64,000 nt of DNA from Eubacteriales bacterium (GTDB lineage Bacteria > Bacillota > Clostridia > Oscillospirales > CAG-272): the NCBI GenBank assembly GCA_045535815.1, contig JAZSMJ010000068.1:5459-69458 (forward strand), given 5' to 3'. Below the pieces are notes generated by a model, which had not been told where the DNA came from, searched no databases, and was given only the letters and a program-made list of their open reading frames with translations. Below are positions 1 to 42,881 of the stretch, piece by piece. The stretch's first letter is position 1. The number at the start of each line of letters is the position of its first letter. The translations under genes were made by a program, and so were the position numbers.

Positions 1-19
1 TTTTGTTCTTTCTCTTCAT
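1..19 (-). CDS. First ~6 codons of an unidentified gene that runs off the left edge
   Basis: CAT at 17-19 (ATG on the minus strand) is preceded by a GGAGGT RBS (acctcc at 26-31) with 6-nt spacing. Confidence 0.3.
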
Positions 20-127
20 GGTAATACCTCCGTAATGGTAAAGTCTGTGATCGTAATACTTGTCGAAACAAGCAAATAGCTTATCTTTATTATCTCATAT
101 ATATGCCGTATTGTCAAGATTAATTAA

Positions 128-159
128 GCTTTTGCAGGCTCAACCATTGGTTGCAAAAA
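128..159 (+). repeat. Copy A of a direct repeat. It is 31/32 identical to 6451-6482, and a weaker resemblance to copy B extends upstream to about 72.
   Basis: By eye, gcttttgcaggctcaacCattggttgcaaaaa matches gcttttgcaggctcaacTattggttgcaaaaa at 6451-6482. Confidence 0.8.
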
Positions 160-186
160 AAACAAGCGGTGCGGTATCGTTTTATA

Positions 187-233
187 AAAGAAAAAATATT
201 CCCTTGCGAAACACTTCAGGTATTTCGCAAGGG
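187..233 (-). terminator. Rho-independent terminator of the aldolase-sialidase gene
   Basis: Hairpin cccttgcgaaa...tttcgcaaggg at 201-233, followed on the minus strand by a U-rich run (A-rich 187-200 on plus). Confidence 0.7.
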
Positions 234-253
234 AAATCGGTATTCAGCTTTTA

Positions 254-2182
254 TTAATCGCCCGAAACGAAGAAGTTATCGGAATTTTTACTGCCCTCGC
301 CCTTTACGACAAGCTTCTTTATGAACGAATTCTTATCGGTAATGCTTCCGTTCATCATATCTTCCTCTGTAAAGCTTGCAAGGAATATCTCTTTATCGTC
401 AACCCTGTTGAAATCGTAGGTAACGAAAGCTCTTCCGCTTTCGTCGATATGGCCTGCCGGGTAGGAGGTCCATGCACGCTCGTCGAGAAGAAGCTTAGGC
501 TGCCACGTGCGGCACTCGTCCGTGGATATGAACGCCGTCATATTCGAGCGGATATTCGTGTCGTTGTTTGTGACGAGCAGATAATTTCCCGAGGGGAATC
601 TTGCCATATAGCTTCTTGATGAGCAGTGATCCATCAGCTTCTGCGGCTTGCTCCAGTCTCGGCCGAAGTTGAACGATTCGGTGTATGCGATATAATTATC
701 GCATCTGATTATCATATAAATGCTTCCGTCCGATCTCTGAACGATAGCGTTTTCATCAAACGTAGATCTTTCATCGAAGGTGCCGCCAACACGGGTAAGC
801 GGCTTATCGGGGCTCTCGGTTATATAGACGCTTGAATCGCCCCAGTTGGGATAATCGTGGATCTGTCCCTTCCATCTCTGCCAAATGCTTACCGGAAGCA
901 TTACTTTGCCGTCTGCGAGAGTTATCGGAGGGGTTGCCATAACTCCGCTGCAAAGTCTCTTGGGAGCGCTCCATTTAATGCAGTCTCCGTCAATGTCAAG
1001 CTTAATTGCCCAAACTCCGCCTCTGCCGTCCCACCAGTTGTAGGACTGCGCCCAGAAGTGCCATACCGTACCCGCATTGTCACACCACATTATCGGCTCG
1101 TGCATTCTTACCGAATCAATATGGTCGAGAATGCATACGGTCTGCCAGCTGTTACCGTTATCACGGCTTCTCATAATTACGTTGTAATTGTTCGGAGCCT
1201 CGTCTCCGCCAAAGTTGTCTCCGGAAAAAGCACACAGAAGACTGCCGTCAGATGCTCTGCAGGTGCTGGGAGCAGATTGCCATCTTCTGTTTTTGGTGTT
1301 GTAGCAGTCGGCTTCAGACGCTTCTGCTCCGAATATATTTGGGGGAAGCATCGAGCAGTTGACGTCAGGGGTAAGGTTTTCTTTCGTGAAGAATGTCTTA
1401 TTTTTGTAAAGAGAGGATGTGTTACAAGCTCTCTCAAGCTTCCTTCTTGTGTTGAGAGCCTCTTGCTGTATATAGCCTACGTCAACACCGGCAGATATCA
1501 TATCGATTCCCATATTGCTCCAATGCTCGAGCGTCGAAACTGCCGTATCTCCGATTGAAATACCGACATATTTTCCGTTTGCCTTGAGTCTGGAGACGGT
1601 ATCCTCAATAAGATGAGTAGTATTTTCACCGAATATGTTACAAAGCTCGTTTATCGAGCCTGAAAGATCCATCGGACCAAAAATATATCCGTCAATATAT
1701 TCATTCTTCATTATCTCGTCAAGCTCGGCGATGGCATCGGTATGCTCTATCTGAATGAATCTTAAAAGGTTATCTTTTGTATTCCTAACGTAAAACTCAA
1801 CGTCAGAGAAGCCGAAATCTATAGCGTTCATGGGACCGAAGCCTCTGTTTCCATACGGAGGATAGAGAGTAGAGGCTATTCTTTCGTTAGCCTGTTTTGC
1901 AGATCTTATCATAGGGAATATTATTCCGTCCGGCCCCATTTCAAGAACCTTTTTCGTATAGGTAAGATCGTCCTGCGGAACACGGACTATTACTGCAGTT
2001 CCGGTCGTTTTTATGGCGATGATGGCAGACATAAGGCTTTCAAGAGACAAATACGTATGCTCAAGGTCTACCCAGATATAATCGAATCCTGCAAGCCCGG
2101 ATATTCTTGCAGATGCGACATCATTCATATTTAAATGCGTTCCGATGATCTTTTCACCGTTTTTTATCTTTTCTTTTAACAT
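254..2182 (-). CDS. Fusion protein: N-terminal HpcH/HpaI-family (class II 2-keto-3-deoxy-acid) aldolase plus C-terminal sialidase-fold/BNR glycosidase-like domain
   Basis: 642-aa ORF with an AAGGAG RBS. The N-terminal ~250 aa carry HpcH/HpaI motifs (AGFDYIWVDLEH, VIVRVP, YPPYGNRGFG, FIQIEH, IDGYIFGPMDLS). The C-terminal ~370 aa have Asp-box-like motifs (SRDNGNSW, STDECRTW) and are paralogous to the N-terminus of 3143..5221. No signal peptide. Confidence 0.75.
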   Translation of the reverse strand: MLKEKIKNGEKIIGTHLNMNDVASARISGLAGFDYIWVDLEHTYLSLESLMSAIIAIKTTGTAVIVRVPQDDLTYTKKVLEMGPDGIIFPMIRSAKQANERIASTLYPPYGNRGFGPMNAIDFGFSDVEFYVRNTKDNLLRFIQIEHTDAIAELDEIMKNEYIDGYIFGPMDLSGSINELCNIFGENTTHLIEDTVSRLKANGKYVGISIGDTAVSTLEHWSNMGIDMISAGVDVGYIQQEALNTRRKLERACNTSSLYKNKTFFTKENLTPDVNCSMLPPNIFGAEASEADCYNTKNRRWQSAPSTCRASDGSLLCAFSGDNFGGDEAPNNYNVIMRSRDNGNSWQTVCILDHIDSVRMHEPIMWCDNAGTVWHFWAQSYNWWDGRGGVWAIKLDIDGDCIKWSAPKRLCSGVMATPPITLADGKVMLPVSIWQRWKGQIHDYPNWGDSSVYITESPDKPLTRVGGTFDERSTFDENAIVQRSDGSIYMIIRCDNYIAYTESFNFGRDWSKPQKLMDHCSSRSYMARFPSGNYLLVTNNDTNIRSNMTAFISTDECRTWQPKLLLDERAWTSYPAGHIDESGRAFVTYDFNRVDDKEIFLASFTEEDMMNGSITDKNSFIKKLVVKGEGSKNSDNFFVSGD

Positions 2183-2324
2183 TGCATCTTTGCTCCTTTT
2201 TTGTGGATAATTCTATTTTAAAATAACAAATAACGAAAGTAAATTGAATAATTGGCAAAAAACATTGCGTTTCTTGCTGTTATCTGTTATAATAACTTTG
2301 CAAAAAGTAAGGGTAGAGAGATTT

Positions 2325-3128
2325 ATGGCAAGAAATGTGAACTTTTCGTTTAACTCCTCATCGGTAGATTTCGTATATACCGTTGGCAAAAAAAACGTAT
2401 ATAGCGAAATGCAGCTTCATCCGTATTTTGAGCTGTACTTTTTTATCGGCGGAAGCGTAGAATACATAGACGGACATATCCAGCAAAAACTTTCTCCAAA
2501 CAGCCTCGTTGTGATTCAGCCGGGAAGCTATCACCGCTTTCACGTTCCGGGTAATATCGATATATACGAGCGCTGCGTGCTCAATATAAGGCATGACCTT
2601 TTGGAAGGAACCGACCTTGTATCTTTTCTTCGGCAAAGGAGGATACTTGAGCTGTCGGAAAATGACAGAATAACTCAGCATTTCAAATATCTCATATCGT
2701 GCATACCGAATACCGATGTGAAGGATTTTGAGGCAATACTGACCGCTGTAGCATCAGATATACTTTATCTGATAAAATACAGCAGGGAGGGTGAGCCTTC
2801 GGATAAGCCGTCAAGCATTTCCTCTCTTGCAGGGGATATAATGAGCTATATCGACCGAAATTATCAAAAGCAATTAAATCTTGAAGAGCTCTCGGTGACG
2901 TTTAACTATTCGGTATCGCATATAACTCACGTTTTTAAAGAGAAATTTGGTATCAGCATAAAAAATTATATTATACAAAGGCGTCTGAGCTCAGCTCAAT
3001 CGCAGATGCTTTTGGGTGTAAAGACTCAGCAGGCTGCGGCTGGTTGCGGCTTTTCCGATTACGCCTCGTTTTACAGAGCCTACAAAAAGGCATACGGGAG
3101 CTTGCCATCCGAATTGAAGAAGAAATAA
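2325..3128 (+). CDS. AraC-family transcriptional regulator (cupin sensor + HTH_AraC)
   Basis: The C-terminus carries an AraC HTH (LEELSVTFNYSVSHITHVFKEKFGISIKNYIIQRRL...GFSDYASFYRAYKKAYG). The N-terminus is cupin-like. The ATG at 2325 has a better RBS than the TTG at 2244. Confidence 0.85.
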   Translation: MARNVNFSFNSSSVDFVYTVGKKNVYSEMQLHPYFELYFFIGGSVEYIDGHIQQKLSPNSLVVIQPGSYHRFHVPGNIDIYERCVLNIRHDLLEGTDLVSFLRQRRILELSENDRITQHFKYLISCIPNTDVKDFEAILTAVASDILYLIKYSREGEPSDKPSSISSLAGDIMSYIDRNYQKQLNLEELSVTFNYSVSHITHVFKEKFGISIKNYIIQRRLSSAQSQMLLGVKTQQAAAGCGFSDYASFYRAYKKAYGSLPSELKKK

Positions 3129-3142
3129 GATCAAGGTGAAGA

Positions 3143-5221
3143 TCAAGCCTTGATTTTTTCTTTTACGGCAGCAAATATTTCACCTGACGTTATGGTGGCT
3201 GCACCCTCAAGCTCAATTTTTCCGTTGTTTTGGCATTGGCTTTCGGTTGCTGATACAGCGTTTCCGCATATACCGCCTGCACATATATGCTCTATGCAGC
3301 AAATGGATGATACGGTGCCGTTGTTTATGCAGGACTCCATGTGGGAATTTTCCGCAGTTCCTGCTATACCGCCAAGATGCGCAATATCGGCATTGCGTGA
3401 GCATATGCTTCCGTCATTTAGGTTATTTGTAAAACTGATTTTTCCTCCCTTTGCAAAACCGGCTATACCGCCTGCGTGTATGAAGTTGTTGCCTGCAGTA
3501 AACGGAGAATATATATTTGCACTGTTATGGCAATCAGTAACAGCAACGTTGCCGTCGGCTCTGCCAACTATACCTCCCAAAAATTCATATCCTATGACAG
3601 ACACGTCTTTTCCGACCGAGCACGAGCTGACAGTTATCTCATTCTCTCCGTTTGAGTCTGCCCAACCGATGAGCGCTGCGGTATTGTTTCTGCCTTTGAA
3701 ATATGCATTTTCAATATTTACGTTTTTTATTGAACCTGCAGTAACGTATCCGAACAGAGCACGAGTGTGAAGCTCGGGTGCTATCTGCGTAAAATTGGAT
3801 ATTGAGTAGCCTTTTCCGTCATAATGCCCCCTGAATGCTGCCACATTTGAGCCGTGTTGTAAAAAATATCCTATAGGCTGTATATTTGTGCCGCCAAAAT
3901 CTATATCTGCTCGCTGCTCTAAAAACATACCGTCAAACGATATACCTGATGATACGCTTTTAGCAACGTAGCTCAGATGCTGAGGCTTTTCTATCAGAAT
4001 AGGATCGTTCTTCGTGCCGGAGCCTATCGGCTTTTCTGTGTCGGGGAAGGCTGCGGGATGACCCTTTATGCCGGTTTTATCCTTGATTATAAATTTGGTA
4101 CCCGATCCTTCGGTTATAAATTCGCGAGCCAGAACGTCCTCCTCTTTAAATCTTGCAAAAAGTATTTCTGCAGCAACCGTGCGTTCTCTGTCATATTGTA
4201 CGAATACCGTCCCGTCGTCTGCTATCGCTATATCCGGATAAGAAACTCCTTCTCTCTCGTCGAGCATAAGCCCGCCCAGCCAACACTCACCGCCGTCCTT
4301 TGACACGAAAGCGCAAAGCTTGCATCTTGAAGAAGGGGCGGTATCAAAGCTTTCGCCGTGCTTTATGAGAAGTATATTTCCGGAAGGAAGCGTTCGTATC
4401 ATTGCAAGACTTCCAACATGCGGAAATGCTTCCTTCTCGGGAGTCCAGGTAATGCCCCAGTCGCTCGAATACGACTTCTTTATTGACTGACATCGGGAGT
4501 ACATCATAATGCGACCGTCGCAAAGCTCGACTATAGAGTGCTCGTTGAACTGACTGTCCTTGAAGGTTATACCGCCTCTTCTGTGCCAGGTTTCGCCCTG
4601 ATCGACCGAGGCATAAACGTGTGCCCCTCTTAAGCTGTCAAGGTCTGTATGGCATTTTTTTAATATTCTGCAAACGTGCCATCTTTCCCACACTGATACG
4701 GGCAGGAGCCATTCGCCCTTTGAAGTAACTATAGGCTTTTTTAAAGATGCTCCGATGCTTATATATTTAGGATCACTCCATATGGGCTCTTCTGCATCGG
4801 GGTTATCGCATATAATAGCGTAATTTGCTCCTTCTCCATCCCACATTCCGAAAGACTGCTGATAGAAAAGCCAAAGCCTTCCGAGAGGATCCTGCCAAAG
4901 ACATCCAATGTGTGTGTTCATAATAAAAGGATTATTATCGTTATGAGGATCGATTATCAGCTTGATATTATTCCAGCTTTCTCCTCTGTCATCACTGTAT
5001 GTTGCTATAAGATAAGCTCCGGATCCGTCTTCTCCGCCTATCCAGCAGCTCCACAGTCTTCCTTTTTTTGTTATTTCAATGCTTGCCTGCATTGCGAAAT
5101 ACTTATAATTCTGAAAATACTCCACTGACGGCGAAAGCTTTATCTGCGCAGGCTTTTTTATTAGCGCCAAAGCCTCGTTTGAATATATTTTATCGGTTGT
5201 GCATTTTTTTTCAATGATCAT
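3143..5221 (-). CDS. Sialidase-fold/BNR glycosidase-like protein with C-terminal GLUG-motif repeats
   Basis: The N-terminal ~380 aa have Asp-box motifs (YSDDRGESW, SVDQGETW, SSDWGITW, SKDGGECW). The C-terminal ~250 aa have GGIVG/GGIAG/GGIAG/GGICG repeats roughly every 25-30 aa (GLUG type). ATG at 5219-5221 lies 9 nt after a GGAGAGG RBS. No signal peptide. Confidence 0.75.
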   Translation of the reverse strand: MIIEKKCTTDKIYSNEALALIKKPAQIKLSPSVEYFQNYKYFAMQASIEITKKGRLWSCWIGGEDGSGAYLIATYSDDRGESWNNIKLIIDPHNDNNPFIMNTHIGCLWQDPLGRLWLFYQQSFGMWDGEGANYAIICDNPDAEEPIWSDPKYISIGASLKKPIVTSKGEWLLPVSVWERWHVCRILKKCHTDLDSLRGAHVYASVDQGETWHRRGGITFKDSQFNEHSIVELCDGRIMMYSRCQSIKKSYSSDWGITWTPEKEAFPHVGSLAMIRTLPSGNILLIKHGESFDTAPSSRCKLCAFVSKDGGECWLGGLMLDEREGVSYPDIAIADDGTVFVQYDRERTVAAEILFARFKEEDVLAREFITEGSGTKFIIKDKTGIKGHPAAFPDTEKPIGSGTKNDPILIEKPQHLSYVAKSVSSGISFDGMFLEQRADIDFGGTNIQPIGYFLQHGSNVAAFRGHYDGKGYSISNFTQIAPELHTRALFGYVTAGSIKNVNIENAYFKGRNNTAALIGWADSNGENEITVSSCSVGKDVSVIGYEFLGGIVGRADGNVAVTDCHNSANIYSPFTAGNNFIHAGGIAGFAKGGKISFTNNLNDGSICSRNADIAHLGGIAGTAENSHMESCINNGTVSSICCIEHICAGGICGNAVSATESQCQNNGKIELEGAATITSGEIFAAVKEKIKA

Positions 5222-5385
5222 AGTCAATAACCTCTCCTTTGTTCAAAATCTGTACCGTATTTTCAGTATATCACCTGCTTGAGAGTCAGTCAATTTCAAG
5301 AGAGTGTACTTAATTGGTATTTTTTTGCGAAAAAGGTTGAGAAAATTATACTTTTGTGTTATAATCTGTGTGGAGGTGTTAAACG

Positions 5386-6390
5386 GTGTTTGATACCAAT
5401 AAAAATATAAATCGATACGGAGATATGCTTTTTGATCTATCCGATCCTGAGACCCGAGAAGGGCTCATATCAGCCGCAAAAGCTATTTCGCATCCTCTGA
5501 GGATCGAAATGCTTAATCAGATAATAAGAATGCCAAGATCTATAACCGATCTTTCAAAGCTTAATCACGTAAGCAATTCGACCGTTATTTTTCATTTGAA
5601 TATTCTTGAGGAAAGCGGGCTTGTTTTCAGCAAGGTTAAACCGAATAAAAAAGGGAAAACCCTGATGTTTTATATAAATTTCTCACATATGAGCTTTGTG
5701 CTGGAAAACAACAAGTCGAATGATTCGGTAACCGTATCTGAGCAAAGCATGGGCGTGGGAAACTATATATCCGCATCTGTTGACGAATATATCAGAATAG
5801 CAACACAAAGCAGATTTACCGTTTTTGAAAAAGATGATATGTATAATCCCGAAAGATTTGATGCAGGGCTCATCTGTATTGATAACGGAGAGATATCCTA
5901 TGCTTTTTCCAATGCCTTTGCCAAGAAAAATAAAGTTGATAAAATAGAATTTTCAATGGAATTATCCTCAGAATCTCCTTATTACTGCAACGATTGGAAG
6001 AGTGAAATATTTTTTTCGGTCTGCGGTGTGGAGGTAGCCTCATATCTTTCGTTGGGAGATTTCGGAGGAGAACGCGGAAAGCTGAATCCGTCGTGGTGGG
6101 ACAGTAAGTATTCGCAGTACGGAGTGCTTACAACGGTCGGCGTCGATGAGGAGGGGGTAACCCTTAACGGAAGAAGGGTCCGTTCGGATCTGACTTTGTC
6201 AGATATAGATCTGTCCGAAGGCGATTATATAACCCTTTCATTAAGGACCGATCCTAAATCTCAGTATGCAAGCGGCTTTAATATATACGGCAGATATTTT
6301 GGAAATGAAAAGCAGGATATTCTGATGAAATTTATATCGTATGATAGATGTAAAAACAAGCTTGCCTCAACGGAGAAGGAAAATGAATGA
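5386..6390 (+). CDS. ArsR-type winged-helix regulator with a large uncharacterised C-terminal domain
   Basis: The N-terminus ISHPLRIEMLNQIIRMPRSITDLSKLNHVSNSTVIFHLNILEESGLV is an ArsR-like HTH. About 230 aa of unassigned C-terminal domain follow. GTG start follows a GGAGGTG RBS. Confidence 0.65.
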   Translation: MFDTNKNINRYGDMLFDLSDPETREGLISAAKAISHPLRIEMLNQIIRMPRSITDLSKLNHVSNSTVIFHLNILEESGLVFSKVKPNKKGKTLMFYINFSHMSFVLENNKSNDSVTVSEQSMGVGNYISASVDEYIRIATQSRFTVFEKDDMYNPERFDAGLICIDNGEISYAFSNAFAKKNKVDKIEFSMELSSESPYYCNDWKSEIFFSVCGVEVASYLSLGDFGGERGKLNPSWWDSKYSQYGVLTTVGVDEEGVTLNGRRVRSDLTLSDIDLSEGDYITLSLRTDPKSQYASGFNIYGRYFGNEKQDILMKFISYDRCKNKLASTEKENE

Positions 6391-6482
6391 CTGTAAATTG
6401 AAAAATAGATATTCGCCTCTTCTGCTTCTGATAGCCGTTATTACAGCGCTGCTTTTGCAGGCTCAACTATTGGTTGCAAAAA
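6382..6482 (+). repeat. Copy B: non-functional remnant of the 5' end (start codon + signal sequence) of the VanY-type lipoprotein gene, fused to the copy-A tail
   Basis: 6395-6461 is about 90% identical to 11636-11702. 6451-6482 is 31/32 identical to 128-159. It reads as a 39-codon ORF (6383-6502, MNDCKLKNRYSPLLLLIAVITALLLQAQ...) that lacks the lipobox Cys. Confidence 0.8.
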
Positions 6483-6525
6483 TCCCCATCGGAAGACATT
6501 AAACGCACTTCCGATGGGGATTTTA
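6476..6525. terminator. Bidirectional rho-independent terminator
   Basis: 14-bp stem atccccatcggaag/cttccgatggggat, flanked by an A-run and a T-run. Confidence 0.75.
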
Positions 6526-6529
6526 GGTA

Positions 6530-7438
6530 TCAGAGTTGTTTTGACGACCTTTTATTTACGGCCGATATGCCTATGCTGACCAGCACGAGCGAGAGAGCAT
6601 ATTGCCAGGTAAATATATTTTCCGAGAGAAAGATTCCCGAGAGGATAGTTCCGGAAATCGGTATGACAAAGGCAAAAACGCTGACCGTGCCAAGCGGATA
6701 GCTTTTTAAAAGATAGCTCCACAGAGTAAATCCGACAGAGGATACCATAACAAGATACAAGAGCACCAAAATGCCCTGAATCGAAACCGTAAAAGGCTCC
6801 TTTGTACCTATAGCTCCGACGGCTATAAGAAGCGCACCGCCTATCAGAAGATTGTATCCGCTGACGTTATAGCAGGAGCTTTTTGCAGTTGCCTTTTTGT
6901 TTATAATTGAGCCTATAACGAAGAATAACGAGGCGAAGCAGATGAAGCCCTCTCCAAGAAAGGAAACTACGTTCACATTGCCGTTTGCAAAGCAGGCGAT
7001 TACTACACCTGCAAAGCCGATAATGCTGCCAATCAGCTTTCCCGGGCTCATTTTGTCGTTTTTATAAATGAAATGAGAGATTATCACCGACATAAACACA
7101 GACGTCGAGGATACTACAGATCCAGATGCTCCCGTGGTGTTTGAAAGACCTACGTAGAAGAATATATACTGCAAAAAGGTGTAGGTTATGGCAAGCAGAA
7201 GAATATTCCTTCCGTTTCCCTTCGGTATGCGCGGAAGACTGCGACACCGTATCGCTTCAAATAAAAGAACCACGATGCCCGATATGAAAAATCTTATTCC
7301 GGCAAAGAGAATCTTCTGAAAAACGCTCTCACCTATTCCGAAAAGCTGATAACCTATCTTTATCGCAGGAAAGGCGCTTCCGAAAAGAATATTGCAGAAA
7401 ACCGCGTAAAGTATAGCTTTTGCGTCGAGGATTTTCAT
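6530..7438 (-). CDS. EamA/DMT-family transporter
   Basis: Multi-TM protein of about 300 aa with two EamA-like halves. Its ATG overlaps the upstream stop codon (ATGA at 7435-7438), which suggests translational coupling. Confidence 0.8.
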   Translation of the reverse strand: MKILDAKAILYAVFCNILFGSAFPAIKIGYQLFGIGESVFQKILFAGIRFFISGIVVLLFEAIRCRSLPRIPKGNGRNILLLAITYTFLQYIFFYVGLSNTTGASGSVVSSTSVFMSVIISHFIYKNDKMSPGKLIGSIIGFAGVVIACFANGNVNVVSFLGEGFICFASLFFVIGSIINKKATAKSSCYNVSGYNLLIGGALLIAVGAIGTKEPFTVSIQGILVLLYLVMVSSVGFTLWSYLLKSYPLGTVSVFAFVIPISGTILSGIFLSENIFTWQYALSLVLVSIGISAVNKRSSKQL

Positions 7439-8487
7439 TCGGATACACTCTTGCAAATGCTTTCTACAGGCAGTATAGCAAGCTCGCAGTCCTCTTTGTT
7501 CTTGGCATATACGACATAAAGAAAGCCGCCGTCCTCATATGCATAGGGATAGCACCATTCGTTTGCAAGCCAATATTTTGGCGGAGCATCAAAGCCGTGT
7601 CGGATAAGATACGATTTTTCAAAGCTTCCGTTTTTACCTACCGCAATGCAGAGCGTATCTCTGTGATTTTCCTTCTTGGTGCTGTATACGAGATAGTCTA
7701 TGCCGTTTGACAGACTGCCGGCATACATTTTACTTGGTGTAATAGGGAAGTTGGTCATTTCAAGAGGAGTCCAGCTCGTTCCGAAATCGCTGCTGCGGCT
7801 GATAAGTGCACAACCTATTTCGTCAGAGCTGCGGATTATGGCGAGTAATTCTTTGCCACAGCTTAAAACGGTCGTCTCTCCCCATATTGCAAGTCCCTGA
7901 GGATTGGGAATGATCTTCATCTCCCATTTTGTGATGTCCTCTCCGTCGCATACTGCAACTGCTGCCTGTGCATCGAGAGTCTTTAGGCCTGCCATTATAA
8001 TAGTGCCGTTATCTGCCTTAAAGGGCTCGCAAAGCGGCCAGAAATCAGCATCAAGAACTACCCCGAGAGGAGTGTATGAGCCGTTTTCTTCAAGACGGTA
8101 CCCCTCCGTTACAAGATCGGGATAACCGGGGCCGTGACCGTATCTTGCCTTGGGGCAAAATGCGTAAAGAGTGCCGCCGTTCTCAAAATAAACCCCGTGA
8201 CTTCTGCCCCAGCCATCCGTCTTATCGGATATGCGCTTGTAATCTCCCCATGAAATGCCGTCATAAGAGCATTTTTCGGCAAGTATGGTATTGTCATCGT
8301 TTTCAAATCGGTATGAGTTGGCAAAGGAGATTCGAAGAAGTCCGTTATGCTTAACTATTGCGGCCCCCAAAAGGAACTGATAGTCACCGTCTATAGCGGT
8401 GTGAACCTCTATATGTCTTATTCCTTCTATATTTGACAGCTCTCCGAAGGCAGGAAAAGAGCTTTTTCCATTCCATAAGTTATACAT
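7435..8487 (-). CDS. Sialidase-fold/BNR protein (standalone catalytic-type domain, second paralog type)
   Basis: 350 aa with Asp-box SSDFGTSW. It aligns along its whole length with residues ~215-560 of 8507..10726 (HFLLGA.I.KH.G.L, FWPLCEP, VWGET, VVYAKNKEDCELAI). No signal peptide. Confidence 0.7.
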   Translation of the reverse strand: MYNLWNGKSSFPAFGELSNIEGIRHIEVHTAIDGDYQFLLGAAIVKHNGLLRISFANSYRFENDDNTILAEKCSYDGISWGDYKRISDKTDGWGRSHGVYFENGGTLYAFCPKARYGHGPGYPDLVTEGYRLEENGSYTPLGVVLDADFWPLCEPFKADNGTIIMAGLKTLDAQAAVAVCDGEDITKWEMKIIPNPQGLAIWGETTVLSCGKELLAIIRSSDEIGCALISRSSDFGTSWTPLEMTNFPITPSKMYAGSLSNGIDYLVYSTKKENHRDTLCIAVGKNGSFEKSYLIRHGFDAPPKYWLANEWCYPYAYEDGGFLYVVYAKNKEDCELAILPVESICKSVSE

Positions 8488-8506
8488 AATATTCGGCCTT
8501 TCTTTT

Positions 8507-10726
8507 TTATTCTGTAATTTCTACAAGCTTAAGTGAGGATATTGCAAAAACGGTGTCACCCTCCGAGAGAGCGTTATCGTTTCCAAAAATAATGAAGAAT
8601 GAATTGAAATCACGAACATTGAAGGAGCCGCCTATAGAATTAAAGGTGATAAACCAGGTGTTCCAGCCTTTTTCAATGCTTTTCCAAAGCTGTTTGCTGC
8701 TGCTTACTCCGTAATCAAGGCGGGTCTTGATATCATAATCTCCCGGCTTTGAAAGATTATTTCCGGATTTAGATACAGAATTGCCCCAGAACATACGGTA
8801 TACAGTAGAGGGATCGGTGATTTTCTTTGAGCTGTAAAAGGTCATAACGAAGCCGAGGCGGTCTATATCAGTCTTTGACAGATCAACGTTAAAGTGACGT
8901 CTCAGTGTTTGGTTGCCGGCTGATATGGCGGTTGAAGACTGCTTGCGGCATACTGCGTTAACACCGTCTATTTTTTCATAGGCAACGTTATTTTTACCCG
9001 TAGAGCCGTCGCCTGTCCACCATGAGTCCGAGTCAACAAGCTCGCAGATAACTGTATGCTCGGGAATGGCAACATCCTTACCTGCGTATGCCTGCTCGTA
9101 GAGTACGGACTGATAGTTGGGATCGTAATCCTTAGGCTCTATAGATGAAAGAGGTACTATAGCAAGCTCGCAGTCCTCTTTGTTTTTGGCGTATACCACG
9201 TAGAGATTTCCGTCTGCCTCGTATGCATAAGGGTAGCTCCACTCATTCGACGCCCAGTAAACAGGCTTGGAATCAAATACGTTTTTGAGAATATATGACG
9301 TGGTAAATCCATAGGATCCGTCCTTTTCTCCTACCGATATCATCATAGTTGCACGCGAACCTAAGTTGTAAACTATATATTTGCTTCCTGTGCTGAGAGT
9401 ACCGCCGTATACCTTTGAATCGGCAATATTGAAATCTGAAAGAGTAAACGAGGTCCACGTTTCACCGTTGTCAAAGCTTTGGCTTACCGCCATTTTTGAA
9501 GATGCCGATCTTATAAATGCAACAAGTCTGTCACCGTAATCGACGACCGATGTCTCTCCCCACACAGAAAGATTGTTTTTGTTCGGAAGTGTTATCATTC
9601 TCCACGAGGTAAGGTCATCTCCGTCAGATATTGCAACTGCCGGAGCAGCACCGCTTTTGCAGTTGAGCCCTGCAATAAGAATGTTTCCGTTTTCAAGCAC
9701 CATAGGCTCGCAAAGAGGCCAGAAATTCTCATCAAGGACGGTGCCGTGCGATTCCCAACTCATATCCTCGCAAAGTGTATATGCTTCCATAACCAGACCG
9801 GGGTATCCTCCACCGTGACCGTACATCGCCTTGGGGGCAAACGCCCAGACTGTGTTCTCGTATTCAAACAGAACTCCGTGGCTTCTTGAATAGCGTCCTT
9901 CAGGACCCGCTATTACAACCTCTTCGCTCCATGTCTTACCCATGTCGTAGGAATACTTGCAGGCAAATCGTGAGCCTGAATCGTTTTCGGTAAGGAGTCC
10001 CTGGCCGTAGGCGCAGATAAGAAAACCGTCGTGCTTTATGATAGATGCGCCCAAAAGGAAATGGTGTCCGTCTGCCTGAGCCTTATGTACGGAAACGTAT
10101 TCAATATCCTCAGCAAAGGTAACATCGCCGTTTTTGGGGTTAAGCTTTGCGTTATTTATAAGCTCCATATCAGGGTAGATCTCCTCCGTGGGTTTTTTAA
10201 GCAGGTTAAATGACAAAATTGAAACGTCAATAGCATCTATAAACATATCGGAATTTATATCAGCTGATGCGTATGCAGCCGGTCCTGCAGACTTTCCGAT
10301 ATCGTATGATAAAGCCGAAACGTCACCGGCGTCAATAAAGCCGTCTCCGGTAATGTCACCGGGAGTAAGAGCAATTTCCGATATTCCGGGAATATACGTC
10401 TCGGTAAGATCAATGCTTGAGCTTACGTCGATGCCCTTTACAGTGTATCCAAGATTGTTACCGCCAGATATAACAAGATCGTATATACCGCTCTCAAGTC
10501 CCGAGAGAGAGAATTTACGTTCGATAGCATCAGAGCTCTTTACGGGCTCAAGGATAGTGTGGCATATCTCAATTCCGTTACAAAGGGCGGTAATTTTAGT
10601 TTCGGAATAGTTGAAATAACCGATTATGTTTCCGCTTATACCGAAGTCAGCTGCATAAACTGTAAACGATACTGATAATAGAATTAAAGCAAAAGCAAAG
10701 GTAAATAAAATCTTAATTTTTTTCAT
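8507..10726 (-). CDS. Secreted dockerin-containing sialidase-fold/BNR protein with a C-terminal CBM-like domain
   Basis: Signal peptide MKKIKILFTFAFALILLSVSFTVYA, then an Ig-like module. A dockerin duplicated motif follows (GDITGDGFIDAGDVS...ADINSDMFIDAIDVS). The BNR domain has SYDMGKTW and SFDNGETW. The last ~190 aa are beta-rich. Confidence 0.75.
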   Translation of the reverse strand: MKKIKILFTFAFALILLSVSFTVYAADFGISGNIIGYFNYSETKITALCNGIEICHTILEPVKSSDAIERKFSLSGLESGIYDLVISGGNNLGYTVKGIDVSSSIDLTETYIPGISEIALTPGDITGDGFIDAGDVSALSYDIGKSAGPAAYASADINSDMFIDAIDVSILSFNLLKKPTEEIYPDMELINNAKLNPKNGDVTFAEDIEYVSVHKAQADGHHFLLGASIIKHDGFLICAYGQGLLTENDSGSRFACKYSYDMGKTWSEEVVIAGPEGRYSRSHGVLFEYENTVWAFAPKAMYGHGGGYPGLVMEAYTLCEDMSWESHGTVLDENFWPLCEPMVLENGNILIAGLNCKSGAAPAVAISDGDDLTSWRMITLPNKNNLSVWGETSVVDYGDRLVAFIRSASSKMAVSQSFDNGETWTSFTLSDFNIADSKVYGGTLSTGSKYIVYNLGSRATMMISVGEKDGSYGFTTSYILKNVFDSKPVYWASNEWSYPYAYEADGNLYVVYAKNKEDCELAIVPLSSIEPKDYDPNYQSVLYEQAYAGKDVAIPEHTVICELVDSDSWWTGDGSTGKNNVAYEKIDGVNAVCRKQSSTAISAGNQTLRRHFNVDLSKTDIDRLGFVMTFYSSKKITDPSTVYRMFWGNSVSKSGNNLSKPGDYDIKTRLDYGVSSSKQLWKSIEKGWNTWFITFNSIGGSFNVRDFNSFFIIFGNDNALSEGDTVFAISSLKLVEITE

Positions 10727-10748
10727 TTTCTGTATGACCTCATTTTAT

Positions 10749-11435
10749 TTATTGTTTTTCGGTTAAATCACTCAGGTTATTGAATATGCCGTTTACGTGG
10801 AAAATCATAGCCTTTTCTGCCTCATTTGCAGATCCCTTGGCTATTGCCGAGACAATATCCTTATGCATTGATATCGCGTGCACGCCGTTTCCTTCAACAG
10901 CGAAAAGGTTAGCTCTGTAATCGGTAAGCTTTTCGTTCAGTATAGATAATATGGAGATCAGCACCTCGTTTTTTGAAAGCTCGGCTATCTTCATATGAAG
11001 ACGGTCGTCACTCTCCGCCATGCCGATGGGGTCATTTTTAGCATATGCATCCTCGTATCTGTAAAGCAGTCCCCAAAGGAACGTAACCTCATCCTCGCTT
11101 GCGTTTTTGGCTGCAAGTGATGCGCAGAGCGGTTCGATAGCTCTTCTTGCTTCAAGGATATCCTTTAAAGCGTACTTATTTTTTGCAAGCCAGCCTGATG
11201 CACTTTTGCTTTCACTCGGCAAATCTTCAGATACGAACGCACCGCGACCGGGCTTTATTTCAACGTATCCCGCCGCCTCAAGTGAGCGCAAAGCCTCTCT
11301 GAGACTTGTTCTGCTGACCGATAGAGTGGAGCAAAGCACTGCTTCAGACGGAAGCTTTTCTCCAAGCGGATACGCTCCCGACTTTATGTTTTTTCTAAGC
11401 TGTTCAAAAACGGTATTTGCAACTGTTTTTTTCAT
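10749..11435 (-). CDS. GntR-family regulator, FadR subfamily (FCD domain)
   Basis: The N-terminus is a GntR HTH (LPSEAVLCSTLSVSRTSLREALRSLEAAGYVEIKPGRGAFV). The C-terminus is an all-helical FCD-like domain. Confidence 0.85.
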   Translation of the reverse strand: MKKTVANTVFEQLRKNIKSGAYPLGEKLPSEAVLCSTLSVSRTSLREALRSLEAAGYVEIKPGRGAFVSEDLPSESKSASGWLAKNKYALKDILEARRAIEPLCASLAAKNASEDEVTFLWGLLYRYEDAYAKNDPIGMAESDDRLHMKIAELSKNEVLISILSILNEKLTDYRANLFAVEGNGVHAISMHKDIVSAIAKGSANEAEKAMIFHVNGIFNNLSDLTEKQ

Positions 11436-14193: not shown

Positions 14194-15120
14194 ATGATAG
14201 TGTACAAGGAGCTTTCTTCAATCGAGAGGGATCTCGGTATCCCTGCAAAAACGCTCTACGGAGTCAGTAATAATATATCGGCACATTACCGAAAGGTTAA
14301 GATTCCCAAAAGGGACGGAAGCTACCGTGTGCTGTCCGTTCCGGACGAGGTGCTGAAAAGGATACAGCGATCTATCGCCCTGAATCTTTTGGCATACGAG
14401 GAGATCTCGGTATACGCAAAGGCCTACAAGATAGGTGCAGGCGTGAAAAATAACGCTCTGCCGCATATCGGAAAGAGCTCTGTGCTAAAGCTGGATATAC
14501 GGAATTTTTTTGACAGCATTACCTATTCCTCGGTAAAAGAAAAGGTCTTTCCCGAAAATAAATATTCGGAAAAGATCAGAATACTTCTATCCATGCTCTG
14601 CTATTGCGGTGAGGTGCTTCCTCAGGGTGCGCCTACCTCGCCCGTCATTACCAATATCATAATGAGGGATTTTGACGAGACAGTCGGCGCATGGTGCGCT
14701 CTGCGCTCGGTAAGCTATACAAGATACTGCGACGATATGACCTTCTCGGGAGAGCTTGATACCGATGAGATCATAGAGTTCGTTTCGGATCAGCTTAAAA
14801 AGCGCGGCTTGTTTTTGAATAAAAGCAAGACTAAGCACGCACGTTTTGGTCAAAGACAGACCGTTACCGGAATAGTCGTAAACCAAAAGATAAATATATC
14901 GAGCGAATATAAGCGCAAGATAAGGCAGGAGGTCTTTTATTGCCGTAAATTCGGTGTAGAGGGGCATCTTGCGAGGATAGGGGAGGATATTTCACCCGCA
15001 AAATATTTAAGCAGTCTTATGGGACGCATAAACTACGTTTTGCAGATGCTTCCCGAAAACGAGGAGTTCAAAGGCTACAGATCAGCCGTCTCCGATATGA
15101 TAAAAAATGAAAATAAATAA
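14194..15120 (+). CDS. Retron-type reverse transcriptase
   Basis: 308 aa with motifs NALPH (NAxxH), LDIRNFFDSI, LPQGAPTSPVITNI, YTRYCDDMTFS (YxDD) and the retron-typical VTGIVVN. Confidence 0.85.
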   Translation: MIVYKELSSIERDLGIPAKTLYGVSNNISAHYRKVKIPKRDGSYRVLSVPDEVLKRIQRSIALNLLAYEEISVYAKAYKIGAGVKNNALPHIGKSSVLKLDIRNFFDSITYSSVKEKVFPENKYSEKIRILLSMLCYCGEVLPQGAPTSPVITNIIMRDFDETVGAWCALRSVSYTRYCDDMTFSGELDTDEIIEFVSDQLKKRGLFLNKSKTKHARFGQRQTVTGIVVNQKINISSEYKRKIRQEVFYCRKFGVEGHLARIGEDISPAKYLSSLMGRINYVLQMLPENEEFKGYRSAVSDMIKNENK

Positions 15121-16616: not shown

Positions 16617-17636
16617 TTATCTTTGTACACGGGCATTTTGATTGCTAAAGGCAAGAGCGGATATCTCTTCCTTTGTAAGCAGACTCTGATCTCCCTGAAT
16701 TGTGTGCTTGAGACAGCATGCCGCAGCTGCAAATTCTATTGATTTATCAGCTTCCATTCCGTCTTCGATCGCATAGATAAGTGCTGCCGCAAATGCATCT
16801 CCTGCACCGAGGCGGTCAACTATATTTATGGTGTATTTTTTGGATGAGCAGAGCCTTCCGCTCTCGTAAAGCTTTGCGCAGAAGGTATTTACCTCGGATG
16901 AGACCGTTCTTCTTTCGGTTATGGCAACCGTTTTGATGCCGTATTTTTCGTCAAATGCGCGTGCTATCTGCATATAGCCCTTTTCGGTAACGTCATCTCC
17001 GTTTATCTCTGATATAGAGGGAGATATGCCGAACAGCTTTGCCGAATGGTCCTCGTTTGTGATAAGTATGTCTATGTACTTGGTAAACTGCTCTATAACC
17101 GACGTCGCCTTTTCATAGCTCCAAAGCTTTGTGCGGTGATTGGGATCAAAGGAGACCTTAACTCCCATTCTTTTAGCGGTGCGACATGCGTCGTGACATA
17201 TATCGATAAGATTGTTTCCGAGAGCAAGCGTTATGCCGGTAAAATGAAAAACGTCTGCACCCGAAAGCAGCTCCTCCCAGTTGAATTCATCGGGCGAAGC
17301 TTTTGATATTGCAGAGCCTGCACGGTCGTATATTACCTTTGAGGGACGCTGGGATGCGCCCTTTTCTATAAAATAAATACCAAGCTTATCCCCGCATCTC
17401 ACTATTCTGTCGCATTTAACACCGTACCTGCGAAGAGAGTTTATTGCCGCTTGTGCTATATCGTTTTCGGGCATACGGGTGATATATTCGGAATCAGCTC
17501 CTAAAAGGGCGAGCTGAAGCGCGGTGTTTGCCTCCGCTCCGCCAAATGTCGCTTCATACGACGGGGCGTCAAGAAACCGTCCAAAGCCTGCAGGTGAAAG
17601 ACGGAGCATTATCTCTCCGAAGGAAACTATTTTCAT
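16617..17636 (-). CDS. kdgK: 2-dehydro-3-deoxygluconokinase (PfkB family)
   Basis: PfkB motifs (GGAEANTA, DRLGAGDAFAAALIY), length 339 aa, and it overlaps eda. Confidence 0.8.
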   Translation of the reverse strand: MKIVSFGEIMLRLSPAGFGRFLDAPSYEATFGGAEANTALQLALLGADSEYITRMPENDIAQAAINSLRRYGVKCDRIVRCGDKLGIYFIEKGASQRPSKVIYDRAGSAISKASPDEFNWEELLSGADVFHFTGITLALGNNLIDICHDACRTAKRMGVKVSFDPNHRTKLWSYEKATSVIEQFTKYIDILITNEDHSAKLFGISPSISEINGDDVTEKGYMQIARAFDEKYGIKTVAITERRTVSSEVNTFCAKLYESGRLCSSKKYTINIVDRLGAGDAFAAALIYAIEDGMEADKSIEFAAAACCLKHTIQGDQSLLTKEEISALAFSNQNARVQR

Positions 17637-18235: not shown

Positions 18236-18417
18236 GTTTTTCTCCGTTAAAATTTCAGTATTCAATAATGCATATACTATTATATAACTTCGATGTGTAA
18301 AAATCAAATACAATATTGCTATTTTTAAAATATATTGTGCTTTTTTTATACATCGGTTGACCTTGGCGCAAAAAAATGATAAAATTATAAAAGAATTATA
18401 ATATCGGAGGTAGATTT

Positions 18418-38609: not shown

Positions 38610-38807
38610 GTGTTTGTTATTTTAGTGAGAAGATACCTGAACGGAGAAGAAACAAGCCCTGAGGGGCTTGTTATTGCCGCACAAAACAGTGCTGCTTTTG
38701 ATGAAGAGGTAAAAAGGGCAAGACAACGGATAATCAAGGATAAGAGCCGTTTCATGCACGGTATTTCTTCAAGGGGCGAGAGTGCATACAAAATAAATGA
38801 AAAGTAA
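38610..38807 (+). CDS. Small hypothetical ORF overlapping the recombinase start. Coding status is uncertain.
   Basis: 65-codon ORF ending 11 nt inside the recombinase gene. The RBS geometry for the GTG start is poor and no recognisable domain is present. Confidence 0.25.
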   Translation: MFVILVRRYLNGEETSPEGLVIAAQNSAAFDEEVKRARQRIIKDKSRFMHGISSRGESAYKINEK

Positions 38808-40173
38808 AAAGACGGCGGCTCTGTATGCAAGAGTCTCGACCGAGGCGCAGTGGGAAGAGGGCTATTCGATAGATGCACAGAAGGATATGCTGATAGCCTG
38901 CTGCCGTGCAAAGGGAATAGAGAACTTTGAGCTTTATATAGACGGCGGATATTCGGGAAGCACACTTGACAGACCCGAGATAAAAAGACTTTGCTCTGAC
39001 GTTAAAAACGGAAGGATAGACTGCGTTATCGTCTATAAGCTTGACAGACTTTCGAGAAGTCAGAAGGACACCCTATATCTTATTGAAGACGTATTCAATC
39101 CAAACGGTGTGGATTTTATCTCTCTCAATGAGAATATGGACACCGCAACTCCGATAGGCAGAGCAATGCTCGGCATAATGTCCGCCTTTGCACAGCTCGA
39201 GCGTGAGACCATAAAGGAAAGAACGAGAATGGGAATGCTTGAGCGTGTGAAGCAGGGATATTGGATGGGCGGCGGAAGAATCCCGTTTGGATACGATTAC
39301 GATAAGGAAAAGGGAATACTCGTGCCCAACAGCGATGCCGCAGTTGTAAAAAGGGTGTACGAGCTGTATCTTGCAGGATATTCGCTTATGAGTATTGCAA
39401 ATAAACTTGGGCTCGGTTACGAGCGTCTTGCACGGCAGATACTATTAAGAAAGACAAACGCAGGGTATATAGTCTACAACGGAAAGGAATACAAGGGGCT
39501 TCATCAGCCGATAATCGACGAGGCTACCTATAACAAAGCGATAGCTCTTTTTGAAAAGCGGTCAAGGGGAAGGCTTAAGGGTGCTGACAATCTTTTGACA
39601 GGGCTTATATACTGCGGTGTTTGCGGAGCAAAAATGCGGTATCAGAAATGGGGCAGGAGCGGTTATAAAATATACTGCTATTCGCAGGATAAGGGAAAGC
39701 CCCATCTGTCAAGGTCGGACGAGTGCGACAATCATAAAATATGGGCGCACGAGCTTGAGGATATCGTAACCGAGGACCTTTTCAGAATGGCGCATAAAAA
39801 GGTCAGCGGTGAGATAGAAGAGGGCGAGGTATCGGATATTGAAATACTGAAGGGCAGGCGAGAGGGAGCAGTTAAGCGCCTGAGGCGCTTATACAAGCTT
39901 TATTCTCAGTCTGATGACAGTGTTCTTATCGACGCCATAAATGAAATAAAGGAAGAAATATCAGAGATAGATGCAAGGATAGAAGCAGAAGAAAAGCTCC
40001 TGTCAAAAAGCACGGCAGATATTGAAAGCTACGAAGAGCTTGCAACTATGGAGGGCGTCTGGCAGTATATGACAAAAAAGGAAAAGCAGCACGTGTTCAG
40101 AAGCTATATCGATAAGATAGTGGTAAGCTACGATAAGGTGGACATATACTATACGCTCCCTGCGAAAACGTAA
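38797..40173 (+). CDS. Large serine recombinase (resolvase catalytic domain + recombinase domain + zinc ribbon + coiled coil), SpoIVCA/CisA-like architecture
   Basis: The N-terminus AALYARVSTEAQ...YSIDAQ contains the catalytic Ser. Also present are VIVYKLDRLSRS and SAFAQLERETIKERT. The zinc ribbon is CGVCG...C...C, followed by a C-terminal coiled coil. Confidence 0.9.
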   Translation: MKSKKTAALYARVSTEAQWEEGYSIDAQKDMLIACCRAKGIENFELYIDGGYSGSTLDRPEIKRLCSDVKNGRIDCVIVYKLDRLSRSQKDTLYLIEDVFNPNGVDFISLNENMDTATPIGRAMLGIMSAFAQLERETIKERTRMGMLERVKQGYWMGGGRIPFGYDYDKEKGILVPNSDAAVVKRVYELYLAGYSLMSIANKLGLGYERLARQILLRKTNAGYIVYNGKEYKGLHQPIIDEATYNKAIALFEKRSRGRLKGADNLLTGLIYCGVCGAKMRYQKWGRSGYKIYCYSQDKGKPHLSRSDECDNHKIWAHELEDIVTEDLFRMAHKKVSGEIEEGEVSDIEILKGRREGAVKRLRRLYKLYSQSDDSVLIDAINEIKEEISEIDARIEAEEKLLSKSTADIESYEELATMEGVWQYMTKKEKQHVFRSYIDKIVVSYDKVDIYYTLPAKT

Positions 40174-42161: not shown

Positions 42162-42821
42162 CTATTCATTAAATCCGTTTGATATTATATCGTCCCTGTA
42201 GGAATCGTCGTACTGCATATAATCGTCGTATATCCTTTTCGTTTTGTCTATAGTCATATCAACAGGCTTTGGGATATAAGTTTGACGGTGCTCTGCTCGG
42301 CGTGCGGTCAGCTCCTCACGCAGCGACTTGTTTTCTTTTATAAGAGCTCCTATATCAACGCTTGAATTCGGAACGAATGAAAGCGCTTCGGCAACCGTCA
42401 GCTCGAGTAGCGACTCATCAAAATCACGCTTTTCGTATTCTGTAGCATAGCAGTATGCAAGAAAGTCAAGAAAAACGAAAAGATTCTCAAGGCAGAGCCG
42501 AGCTTCGTCACGGCTTATCTCCTTATCGCCGTGAGCGGCTGCGTTTCCTATCTTGCGGACTATGTCCATGCGCATCCAGATATCTTCTCCGACCAAAGAC
42601 CTGAACTCGTCCTCACGCATAAGCGAATAGAGCGATTGCTCTCCGTGGCACTCAAGCTCGCTGTCCACCGAAAACATCCATTTAACAGCAAATTCCATAG
42701 CTCTTCTGCAGTTAAGAACGCAGGCGTCAACGTCGATATGTAAAAGCTGCTCGGCAGAGATCGCAACGTCAGCAAAAGAAGCAAAATCGGGTGTCTTAAG
42801 TAAAAAATCGAAATTTGTCAC
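42162..42821 (-). pseudogene. DUF4145-type domain + coiled coil. Probably the truncated N-terminal fragment of a type I restriction enzyme R subunit (hsdR).
   Basis: The GTG start has a GGAGG RBS. The sequence NFDFL...FASFADVAISAEQLL...CVLNCRRAMEFAVKWMF...IRKIGNAAAHG resembles the N-terminal DUF4145 module of HsdR proteins. The ORF ends where the HsdR nuclease/helicase core would begin. Family name is from memory. Confidence 0.5.
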
Positions 42822-42881
42822 GGTCTCCTCCTTTGAATATTTCTTGTACCTATATATTATACACTCAGCCGTGTGCAAATG

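Follow-up and report, generated by a model that had tools for sequence, protein, structure and literature searches.

The window analysed here, 64,000 nucleotides from an Eubacteriales bacterium (GTDB lineage Bacteria; Bacillota; Clostridia; Oscillospirales; CAG-272; assembly GCA_045535815.1, contig JAZSMJ010000068.1, positions 5,459 to 69,458), carries near its start a gene that joins an HpcH/HpaI-type aldolase to a sialidase-fold β-propeller in one polypeptide. We propose that this fusion is a bifunctional cytoplasmic enzyme in which the release of an ulosonic acid sugar is coupled to its aldol cleavage, a reading that we consider the best explanation of the sequence and its context and to which we assign a probability of about 55%. 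Our analysis establishes the domain architecture, the fold, the conservation of the catalytic residues, and the linkage of the two halves by fusion and by gene neighbourhood in related genomes.

The fusion gene and its signals, all on the minus strand, are laid out as follows.

254..2182, minus strand: fusion gene of an HpcH-type aldolase and a sialidase-fold propeller, an unbroken open reading frame (ORF) of 642 codons plus stop
2193..2196, minus strand: ribosome-binding site GGAG upstream of the start ATG at 2182, read directly from the sequence
1427..2182, minus strand: aldolase domain, residues 1-252, a class II metal-dependent pyruvate aldolase with a TIM barrel, from Pfam, Foldseek and standalone homologues
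1394..1426, minus strand: fusion junction, a short linker at about residues 253-263, from the limits of standalone homologues, with a predicted local distance difference test score (pLDDT) of at least 76
257..1393, minus strand: six-bladed sialidase-fold β-propeller, termed P1, residues 264-642, from BNR_2, the AF2 model, Foldseek and profile comparison
189..235, minus strand: intrinsic terminator, a hairpin of 16-bp stem at 199..235 with a T-run, immediately 3' of the stop codon

Pfam recognises both halves of the 642-residue protein, with HpcH_HpaI matching residues 16-235 (4.4e-24) and BNR_2 residues 313-583 (2.5e-21), and the AF2 model of the whole protein has a mean pLDDT of 91.5. An exhaustive HMMER scan found that standalone aldolases stop at the equivalent of residue 252 and standalone propellers start at about residue 264; the two domains are therefore joined nearly end to end. 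Because the terminator directly follows the stop codon, the gene is monocistronic. No signal peptide was found in the fusion protein, whose N-terminus leads directly into barrel strand β-1, and the protein is accordingly predicted to be cytoplasmic. An earlier note on this DNA, made from the letters alone, had described a single polypeptide with an aldolase at residues ~1-250, a BNR/sialidase-fold domain at residues ~270-642 and no signal peptide; the continuous ORF, the two Pfam domains, the AF2 model, the refined domain limits and the sequence of the N-terminus bear out each of these points.

The aldolase half is, by sequence and predicted structure, classed as an intact member of the HpcH/HpaI (PF03328) superfamily. 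Its best sequence match in the PDB is YfaU (2vws; 2.8e-32), with an alignment free of gaps over the catalytic region, and in Foldseek comparisons with HpaI, YfaU and GarL it gives TM-scores of 0.84-0.89 and root-mean-square deviations of 2.0-2.8 Å at 26-29% identity. Residues H42, R67, E146 and D172 align with H49, R74, E153 and D179 of YfaU, which we take to be the catalytic histidine and arginine and the two metal ligands, respectively, and all four are invariant in the 17 fusion proteins described below, so that the metal and substrate ligands about which the earlier note had asked are present. Their codons, placed by the gap-free YfaU alignment, are:

2057..2059, minus strand: H42
1982..1984, minus strand: R67
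1745..1747, minus strand: E146
1667..1669, minus strand: D172

Scores against the NCBIfam equivalog models fall far below each cut-off (HpaI, 145 of 369 bits; GarL, 121 of 393-407; RhmA, 120 of 441), and we therefore place the aldolase half in a distinct, unassigned clade and do not regard it as an orthologue of HpaI, GarL or RhmA. Identity with a class I N-acetylneuraminate lyase (NanA, of the DHDPS family) was rejected, as the half belongs to the HpcH family and has no DHDPS match.

The propeller half, modelled alone, reached a pLDDT of 93.2 and a predicted TM-score of 0.92. Its 50 best PDB neighbours in Foldseek all have the sialidase fold, with query-normalised TM-scores of 0.55-0.68 and identities of 12-17%; they comprise GH33 (glycoside hydrolase family 33) sialidases, 2-keto-3-deoxynononic acid (Kdn) hydrolases or Kdnases, an intramolecular trans-sialidase, the uncharacterised protein Dfer_1899 and 4j9t, a designed protein of sialidase fold. 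A profile built from 43 propeller sequences matches GH33 chains at up to 3e-18, and its alignment to sialidase 7lbu pairs E477 (in FDEN) with the catalytic glutamate, Y574 (in SYP) with the nucleophilic tyrosine, R493 and R545 with two of the triad's arginines, the second and the third, and D327 with the acid/base aspartate. We assessed conservation over 128 P1 domains from 116 representatives, each more than 50% divergent, with the following result.

Codon 752..754, minus strand: E477, conserved in 100%
Codon 704..706, minus strand: R493, 99%
Codon 548..550, minus strand: R545, 98%
Codon 461..463, minus strand: Y574, putative nucleophile, 98%
Codon 1286..1288, minus strand: R299, 86%
Codons 1199..1204, minus strand: D327 and E328, acid candidates, with Glu or Asp at position 328 in 92%
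Residues D590 and R593: 98% each
Residues R523 and R359: 91% and 90%
Position 303: Gly in 100 of the 128 domains (78%), Ser in the fusion

This pattern indicates a putative sialidase-type active site. The earlier note had asked after the sialidase arginine triad and the Tyr/Glu nucleophile pair: the pair and two of the arginines are kept, but the position of the canonical RIP-motif arginine is occupied by S303. R299, four residues upstream, may take over its role above the small residue at 303. Of the Asp-boxes (S-x-D-x-G-x-T-W), one is canonical (SRDNGNSW, residues 339-346) and two are degenerate (503-510 and 553-560), and the Pfam BNR motif match is weak. The 50 top-ranked Foldseek matches and the 60 top-ranked PDB profile matches include no GH93 entry, and the retained Tyr and Arg residues point towards chemistry of the GH33 type. 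Membership in the Dha hydrolase family GH143 (Dha, 3-deoxy-D-lyxo-hept-2-ulosaric acid) was rejected on its model PF24067, the BT_1020-like propeller, which at E≤10 matched neither the fusion propeller nor its three window paralogues nor representatives of the families P1, P2 and P3 described below; a Paenibacillus propeller served as positive control, at 28.9 bits against a cut-off of 27. On the Pfam, profile and structure comparisons, P1 is best treated as a distinct sialidase-like family, set apart from GH33 and GH143.

Searching 5.8 billion protein clusters, we recovered 16 further full-length fusion clusters, 632-648 residues long and 54-66% identical to the window protein at 98-100% query coverage. 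They derive from ENA, Logan, NCBI and JGI assemblies, some of them on contigs of 43-77 kb. All 17 fusions are colinear and unbroken through the junction, and K262, P281 and G285 are invariant in the linker region. The earlier note had raised a sequencing frameshift as a danger to its reading; these independently assembled homologues refute it indirectly, in place of the read support that had been suggested. The note had also called for a survey of related genomes, which places the shared architecture of the 17 clusters in one 50%-identity cluster, with P0002 as the sole representative spanning both halves among 1.84 billion 50%-identity representatives. Reference-genome matches are metagenome-assembled genomes from water deer and from other gut metagenomes with the host unstated, and one Fumia sp. 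The fusion is real, and its distribution is limited to a single, rather narrow group of uncultured Clostridia from the gut. NCBI names its orthologues only "exo-alpha-sialidase", and a full-text search of the literature turned up no account of a fusion or module of the HpcH-sialidase kind, in keeping with the earlier note, whose author knew of no characterised aldolase-sialidase fusion. One database entry, P0027, in which the fusion is cut off in blade 1 and followed by a dockerin, was set aside as an apparent chimera. In locus L059 (4-1841) the orthologue is read as two overlapping ORFs, 10..660 for the aldolase and 657..1841 for the propeller, either through a sequencing frameshift or through natural fission.

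The fusion is the rare fused form of a widespread two-gene module, an HpcH aldolase and an Asp-box propeller with an AraC-family regulator, in Clostridia of herbivore and high-fibre guts. Among 72 non-redundant loci with an aldolase of this clade, six carry a fusion, and in 30 an Asp-box propeller is encoded no more than 3 kb away. In seven of the related loci (L006, L016, L018, L020, L022, L023 and L025) a standalone clade aldolase adjoins a standalone P1 propeller, the two being usually divergent and a few hundred bases apart; these propellers are the closest standalone P1 sequences, at 39-43% identity to that of the fusion, and the aldolase of L006 is 53% identical to the N-terminal half. 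The partner propellers fall into three divergent families: P1 itself; P2, of about 353 residues in 14 loci, related to P1 with an hhalign probability of 93% and matching sialidases weakly (4.5e-7); and P3, of about 369 residues in six loci, whose likeness to sialidases lies in the Asp-box alone. From these weak P2 and Asp-box-only P3 matches, no catalytic residues were mapped. Of the related loci surveyed, 47 contain an AraC-family gene; as a rule it immediately adjoins the aldolase or fusion gene, before or after it, and is mostly encoded on the other strand. A neighbour-joining tree, rough and built without bootstrap, has aldolase subclades that track the family of the partner propeller and fused forms that are interleaved with split ones, which suggests that more than one fusion or fission event may have occurred.

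From this evidence we infer the glycosidase activity, the order of the two reactions and the nature of the sugar, as follows. The propeller would act as a retaining exo-glycosidase, with Y574 and E477 as nucleophile pair and the general acid/base at 327/328, while R493, R545 and probably R299 would clamp the carboxylate of the substrate. From the end of an oligosaccharide taken up by the cell it would remove a 2-keto-3-deoxy (ulosonic) acid sugar, and the aldolase, with its metal held by E146 and D172 and with R67 and H42 as catalytic residues, would then split the open-chain sugar acid into pyruvate and an aldehyde. Expression would probably be under the control of the divergently transcribed AraC regulator.

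Coupled release and cleavage had been put forward in the earlier note; gene neighbourhood, fusion and conserved residues favour it, while the missing RIP arginine and the lack of demonstrable membership in GH33 or GH143 do not. The strongest functional evidence is the gene neighbourhood, which supports the coupling independently. Several observations weigh against the proposal. In the propeller, the alignment puts S303 (in WQSAP), at high posterior probability, where the RIP arginine would stand, the position of the general acid varies (conservation across P1 is poor at D327 and better at the adjacent 328), identity to any GH33 structure is just 12-17%, and PF24067 gave no match to the fusion propeller even at E≤10. 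In the genomes, one in two aldolase genes of the clade lacks a propeller within 3 kb, and no importer adjoins the fusion gene in the window. Split modules, moreover, share operons with a bona fide AraD (L-ribulose-5-phosphate 4-epimerase, above the NCBIfam cut-offs) and a divergent XylB-like FGGY kinase. This pair fits L-arabinose catabolism and is mismatched to the aldehydes expected from 2-keto-3-deoxyoctonate (Kdo; D-arabinose), from Dha (a C4 uronate), from Kdn and from N-acetylneuraminic acid (Neu5Ac). The operons in question are:

L014, 9959-14116
L015, 9959-13060
L018, 3570-9714
L020, 8927-15331
L053, 9977-12994

These operons lend support to the idea that the two domains are co-regulated but act on different sugars, the propeller on a neutral or other residue (for example an arabinofuranoside, in the manner of GH93) and the aldolase on L-arabinose or a pectin metabolite, so that the fusion would reflect co-expression and not consecutive catalysis. 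AraC-type regulators are ubiquitous, GH172 and GH32 genes lie nearby in L001, L004 and L036, and the missing RIP arginine would also fit. Against it, the near-invariant GH33-type Tyr/Glu pair and at least three arginines argue for an anionic ketoside substrate, GH93 structures are absent from the 50 closest folds, and covalent fusion together with the pairing of aldolase subclades and propeller families exceeds what co-regulation usually yields. We judge this account improbable.

The absence of an oligosaccharide importer beside the window gene, in a protein that is predicted to stay in the cytoplasm, speaks for a different scheme, in which the propeller would convert an imported free but modified ulosonic acid (an anhydro, 2,3-unsaturated or lactone form) with no glycosidic cleavage, and the aldolase would split the product. 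The modified sugar would then be made outside the cell by the secreted dockerin-BNR_2 paralogue, which is encoded in the same gene island as an EamA transporter. By analogy, enzymes of the sialidase fold hydrate Neu5Ac2en or open 2,7-anhydro-Neu5Ac; an intramolecular trans-sialidase is among the structural neighbours of the propeller, and GFO/IDH/MocA oxidoreductases adjoin the fusion in L011. The argument is purely analogical, however, since no sequence feature separates such a conversion from hydrolysis, and elsewhere solute-binding proteins of the oligosaccharide-import type stand beside standalone P1 genes. We hold this scheme to be distinctly unlikely.

That the propeller is a non-catalytic binding or oligomerisation module on an ordinary sugar-acid aldolase is very improbable: propellers with BNR/Asp-box repeats can be non-enzymatic and the arginine triad is non-canonical, but the 98-100% conservation of E477, R493, R545, Y574, D590 and R593 over the 128 domains resembles that of an active site. 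Finally, although the overlapping ORFs of L059, on a contig of 2 kb, and the chimeric look of P0027 could be cited for a frameshift or assembly chimera joining two adjacent genes, we rejected this origin as having a negligible chance, given 17 independent, full-length and colinear orthologue clusters, drawn from four data sources and in part found on contigs as long as 77 kb, and the fact that separate neighbouring halves usually lie on opposite strands, where a frameshift cannot join them.

Coupled release and cleavage by the fusion would follow a known logic, that of the GH33 exo-sialidase NanH and the lyase NanA, in which a 2-keto-3-deoxy acid is set free by an enzyme of the sialidase fold and then split by a pyruvate lyase. 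The GH33 Tyr/Glu pair and two arginines align between the two systems, and NanR-like FCD-GntR regulators are associated with the module. They differ in that the fusion puts both activities on one chain, that its lyase is a class II metal-dependent HpcH aldolase whereas NanA is a class I Schiff-base enzyme of the DHDPS family, and that its putative glycosidase is located in the cytoplasm, shares no more than 12-17% identity with GH33 structures and is without the RIP arginine. On this comparison the protein would be a sialidase/lyase catabolic pair in which the fused state and the class II aldolase are what is new. HpaI, YfaU (RhmA) and GarL share the fold and the catalytic His, Arg, Glu and Asp of the aldolase half; unlike them, it continues into a propeller at the C-terminal side, and in the genomes its clade is linked to Asp-box propellers. 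Fungal and bacterial Kdnases, such as that of Aspergillus fumigatus (2xzi), are among the propeller's structural neighbours and use the sialidase fold on a non-aminated ulosonic acid, but they are 14% identical to it, have the canonical arginine triad, are secreted and have no link to an aldolase. Fusion of an ulosonic-acid hydrolase to the enzyme of an adjacent step also has precedent in Bacteroides thetaiotaomicron, where BT1013 combines a GH78 rhamnosidase with a Kdo hydrolase and BT1020 a GH143 Dha hydrolase with a GH142 arabinofuranosidase (PMC13501991). Those proteins join two glycosidases, the partner being the one that uncaps the ulosonic acid, and no aldolase, in contrast to the fusion of the window. 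In Bacteroides, BT1013 and BT1020 act outside the cytoplasm.

As for the substrate, Dha or Kdo of the pectin rhamnogalacturonan II (RG-II) is a tentative candidate, put forward on circumstantial grounds. An acid sugar is suggested by the conserved P1 arginines, by the FCD-GntR regulators in six loci, by the pairs of a DHDPS/NAL-like lyase and an Asp-box protein that adjoin the module, and by the nearest relatives of the aldolase, all of which cleave 2-keto-3-deoxy acids. Plant pectin is suggested by the hosts (herbivore hindgut, rumen and Hadza microbiomes), by the secreted dockerin BNR_2 paralogue in the island, by nearby genes for 2-keto-3-deoxygluconate (KDG) kinase and 2-keto-3-deoxy-6-phosphogluconate (KDPG) aldolase, and by the GH143-like propeller of Paenibacillus thalictri. 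Dha, a 2-keto-3-deoxy acid with seven carbons and two carboxylates, resembles the substrates of HpaI and GarL, and in RG-II it is capped by β-L-arabinofuranose. This cap could explain the recurrence of AraD and the FGGY kinase in the split operons. Kdo is equally possible, from RG-II chain C or from bacterial capsules. Of the four sugars named in the earlier note (Neu5Ac, Kdn, Kdo and Dha), the last two are favoured in this way, but none predicts AraD and FGGY-kinase partners.

A possible, still doubtful, extension is that the fusion and its split relatives supply the missing cytoplasmic route for catabolism of RG-II Dha, Kdo or both in Gram-positive gut bacteria. To our knowledge, Kdo aldolase activity (EC 4.1.2.23) has long been known with no gene assigned to it, and we know of no Dha aldolase. 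More generally, the use by gut bacteria of rare acidic sugars, such as the Kdo and Dha of RG-II and those of bacterial surface glycans, is largely unknown, and D-Kdo catabolism in gut microbes has been stated to be unconfirmed (bioRxiv 10.64898/2026.03.13.711244). Should our proposal hold, a sialidase-like glycosidase and a class II aldolase would perform consecutive steps in one protein, a compact bifunctional enzyme for the analysis or synthesis of ulosonic acids. The RG-II extension would, in addition, give a first sequence for a Kdo or Dha aldolase activity and a new family of sialidase-like glycosidases, and the fused state might let the sugar, just set free and still in ring form, pass straight from one domain to the other. 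Annotated only as "exo-alpha-sialidase", these proteins would lead astray any study in which foraging on mucin or sialic acid is scored. The work flags a recurrent unannotated module (HpcH aldolase, Asp-box propeller and AraC regulator) in ruminant, hindgut and Hadza-type microbiomes, and makes Kdo/Dha catabolism by Gram-positive gut bacteria a directly testable question.

Of the FCD-GntR genes (cluster 11, in the six loci mentioned), one is in the window at 10749..11435, the one in L011 is the immediate upstream neighbour of the fusion, and the one in L019 stands between aldolase and P2; the best NCBIfam match of the L019 member is NanR, below the cut-off. ABC solute-binding proteins adjoin standalone P1 genes in L012, L022 and L025, and the window, L015 and L016 each have genes for KDG kinase and KDPG aldolase close to the module. 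In L051 (9905-16481), from the isolate Paenibacillus thalictri N2SHLJ1, a clade aldolase of 49% identity stands beside an FCD-GntR gene in a region with AraC-family regulators and ABC solute-binding proteins, and a BNR_2 propeller about 5 kb from it barely passes the BT_1020-like (GH143) model. EamA was rejected as a conserved linked transporter, as the window protein groups apart from its counterparts in L004 and L008.

Four loci (L027, L033, L040 and L043; for example L033, 6605-8956) hold a second kind of pair, a DHDPS/NAL-like class I aldolase followed by an Asp-box protein of 390-470 residues, with its own AraC gene nearby. It adjoins the HpcH aldolase, and P2 is also present in L027, L040 and L043 but not in L033. 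Because such pairs also occur, these genomes use more than once the combination of a pyruvate lyase and a sialidase-like propeller. A secreted lipoprotein of the EEP family is also encoded in L018, L020, L022 and L025. In L004 (11933-13153) and L006 (5026-6219), a protein of about 400 residues with a weak Peptidase_M14/AstE-AspA match (37% mutual identity) lies directly beside the fusion and the split module, respectively; it was found nowhere else among the loci.

P1 propellers have other fusion partners, mostly second propellers in tandem, with one AraC-type helix-turn-helix and one inosine-uridine nucleoside-hydrolase-like domain, and these gave no decisive clue to the substrate. The last, P0048 (553 residues, stopping at the contig end), joins the nucleoside-hydrolase-like domain to a P1 propeller about 50% identical to that of the window, and might point to glycans with both ribose and an ulosonic acid. 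P0071 (946 residues) combines an Asp-box region, an AraC-type helix-turn-helix and a P1-type BNR_2 propeller; either a regulator has been fused to an enzyme here, or gene calling may have merged separate genes.

In the window itself, positions 1-11435 contain four BNR_2 genes, with AraC, ArsR-like, EamA and FCD-GntR genes in between. The neighbours of the fusion gene with assigned domains are:

2244..3128, plus strand: AraC-family regulator (HTH_18, HTH_AraC, AraC_binding), divergent from the fusion
3143..5227, minus strand: P1-type propeller paralogue with C-terminal GLUG repeats and no signal peptide (BNR_2, Glug)
7435..8487, minus strand: BNR_2 propeller of 350 residues without signal peptide (Pfam)
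8507..10726, minus strand: secreted BNR_2 propeller with signal peptide and dockerin (Pfam)
10749..11435, minus strand: FCD-type GntR regulator of the carboxylate-sensing kind (GntR and FCD matches)

The AraC protein is the likely local regulator of the fusion. The N-terminal propeller encoded at 3143..5227 is 32% identical to the fusion propeller (E 1e-45) and keeps the equivalents of the E, R, R and Y residues; the earlier note had recognised this paralogy and given the gene as 3143..5221, 5221 being an internal ATG of the longer ORF. The propellers encoded at 7435..8487 and 8507..10726 form a family of their own without a PDB sequence match, and their proximity to the fusion gene suggests that they could belong to its pathway.

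Farther along, about 14 kb from the fusion, genes for a KDG-kinase-like PfkB protein and a KDPG/2-keto-4-hydroxyglutarate (KHG) aldolase overlap by four bases (16617-18313, minus strand). A 308-residue ORF with a reverse-transcriptase domain, RVT_1 (14194-15120, plus strand), may belong to a retron-type element or a group II intron. A serine recombinase of the large type, with Resolvase, Recombinase and Zn-ribbon domains, is encoded at 38797..40173 and a DUF4145 protein at 42162..42878, and the cumulative GC skew changes sign at about 41-42 kb, which could mark a mobile-element boundary or a replication landmark. A role of the fusion in anti-phage defence was rejected, as PADLOC gave no matches. 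A second dockerin protein, of 911 residues with a GDSL lipase/acylhydrolase domain, is encoded at 46107-48842 (minus strand), so the organism probably has a cellulosome-like system. The window genes also include SpoIVB, which points to sporulation.

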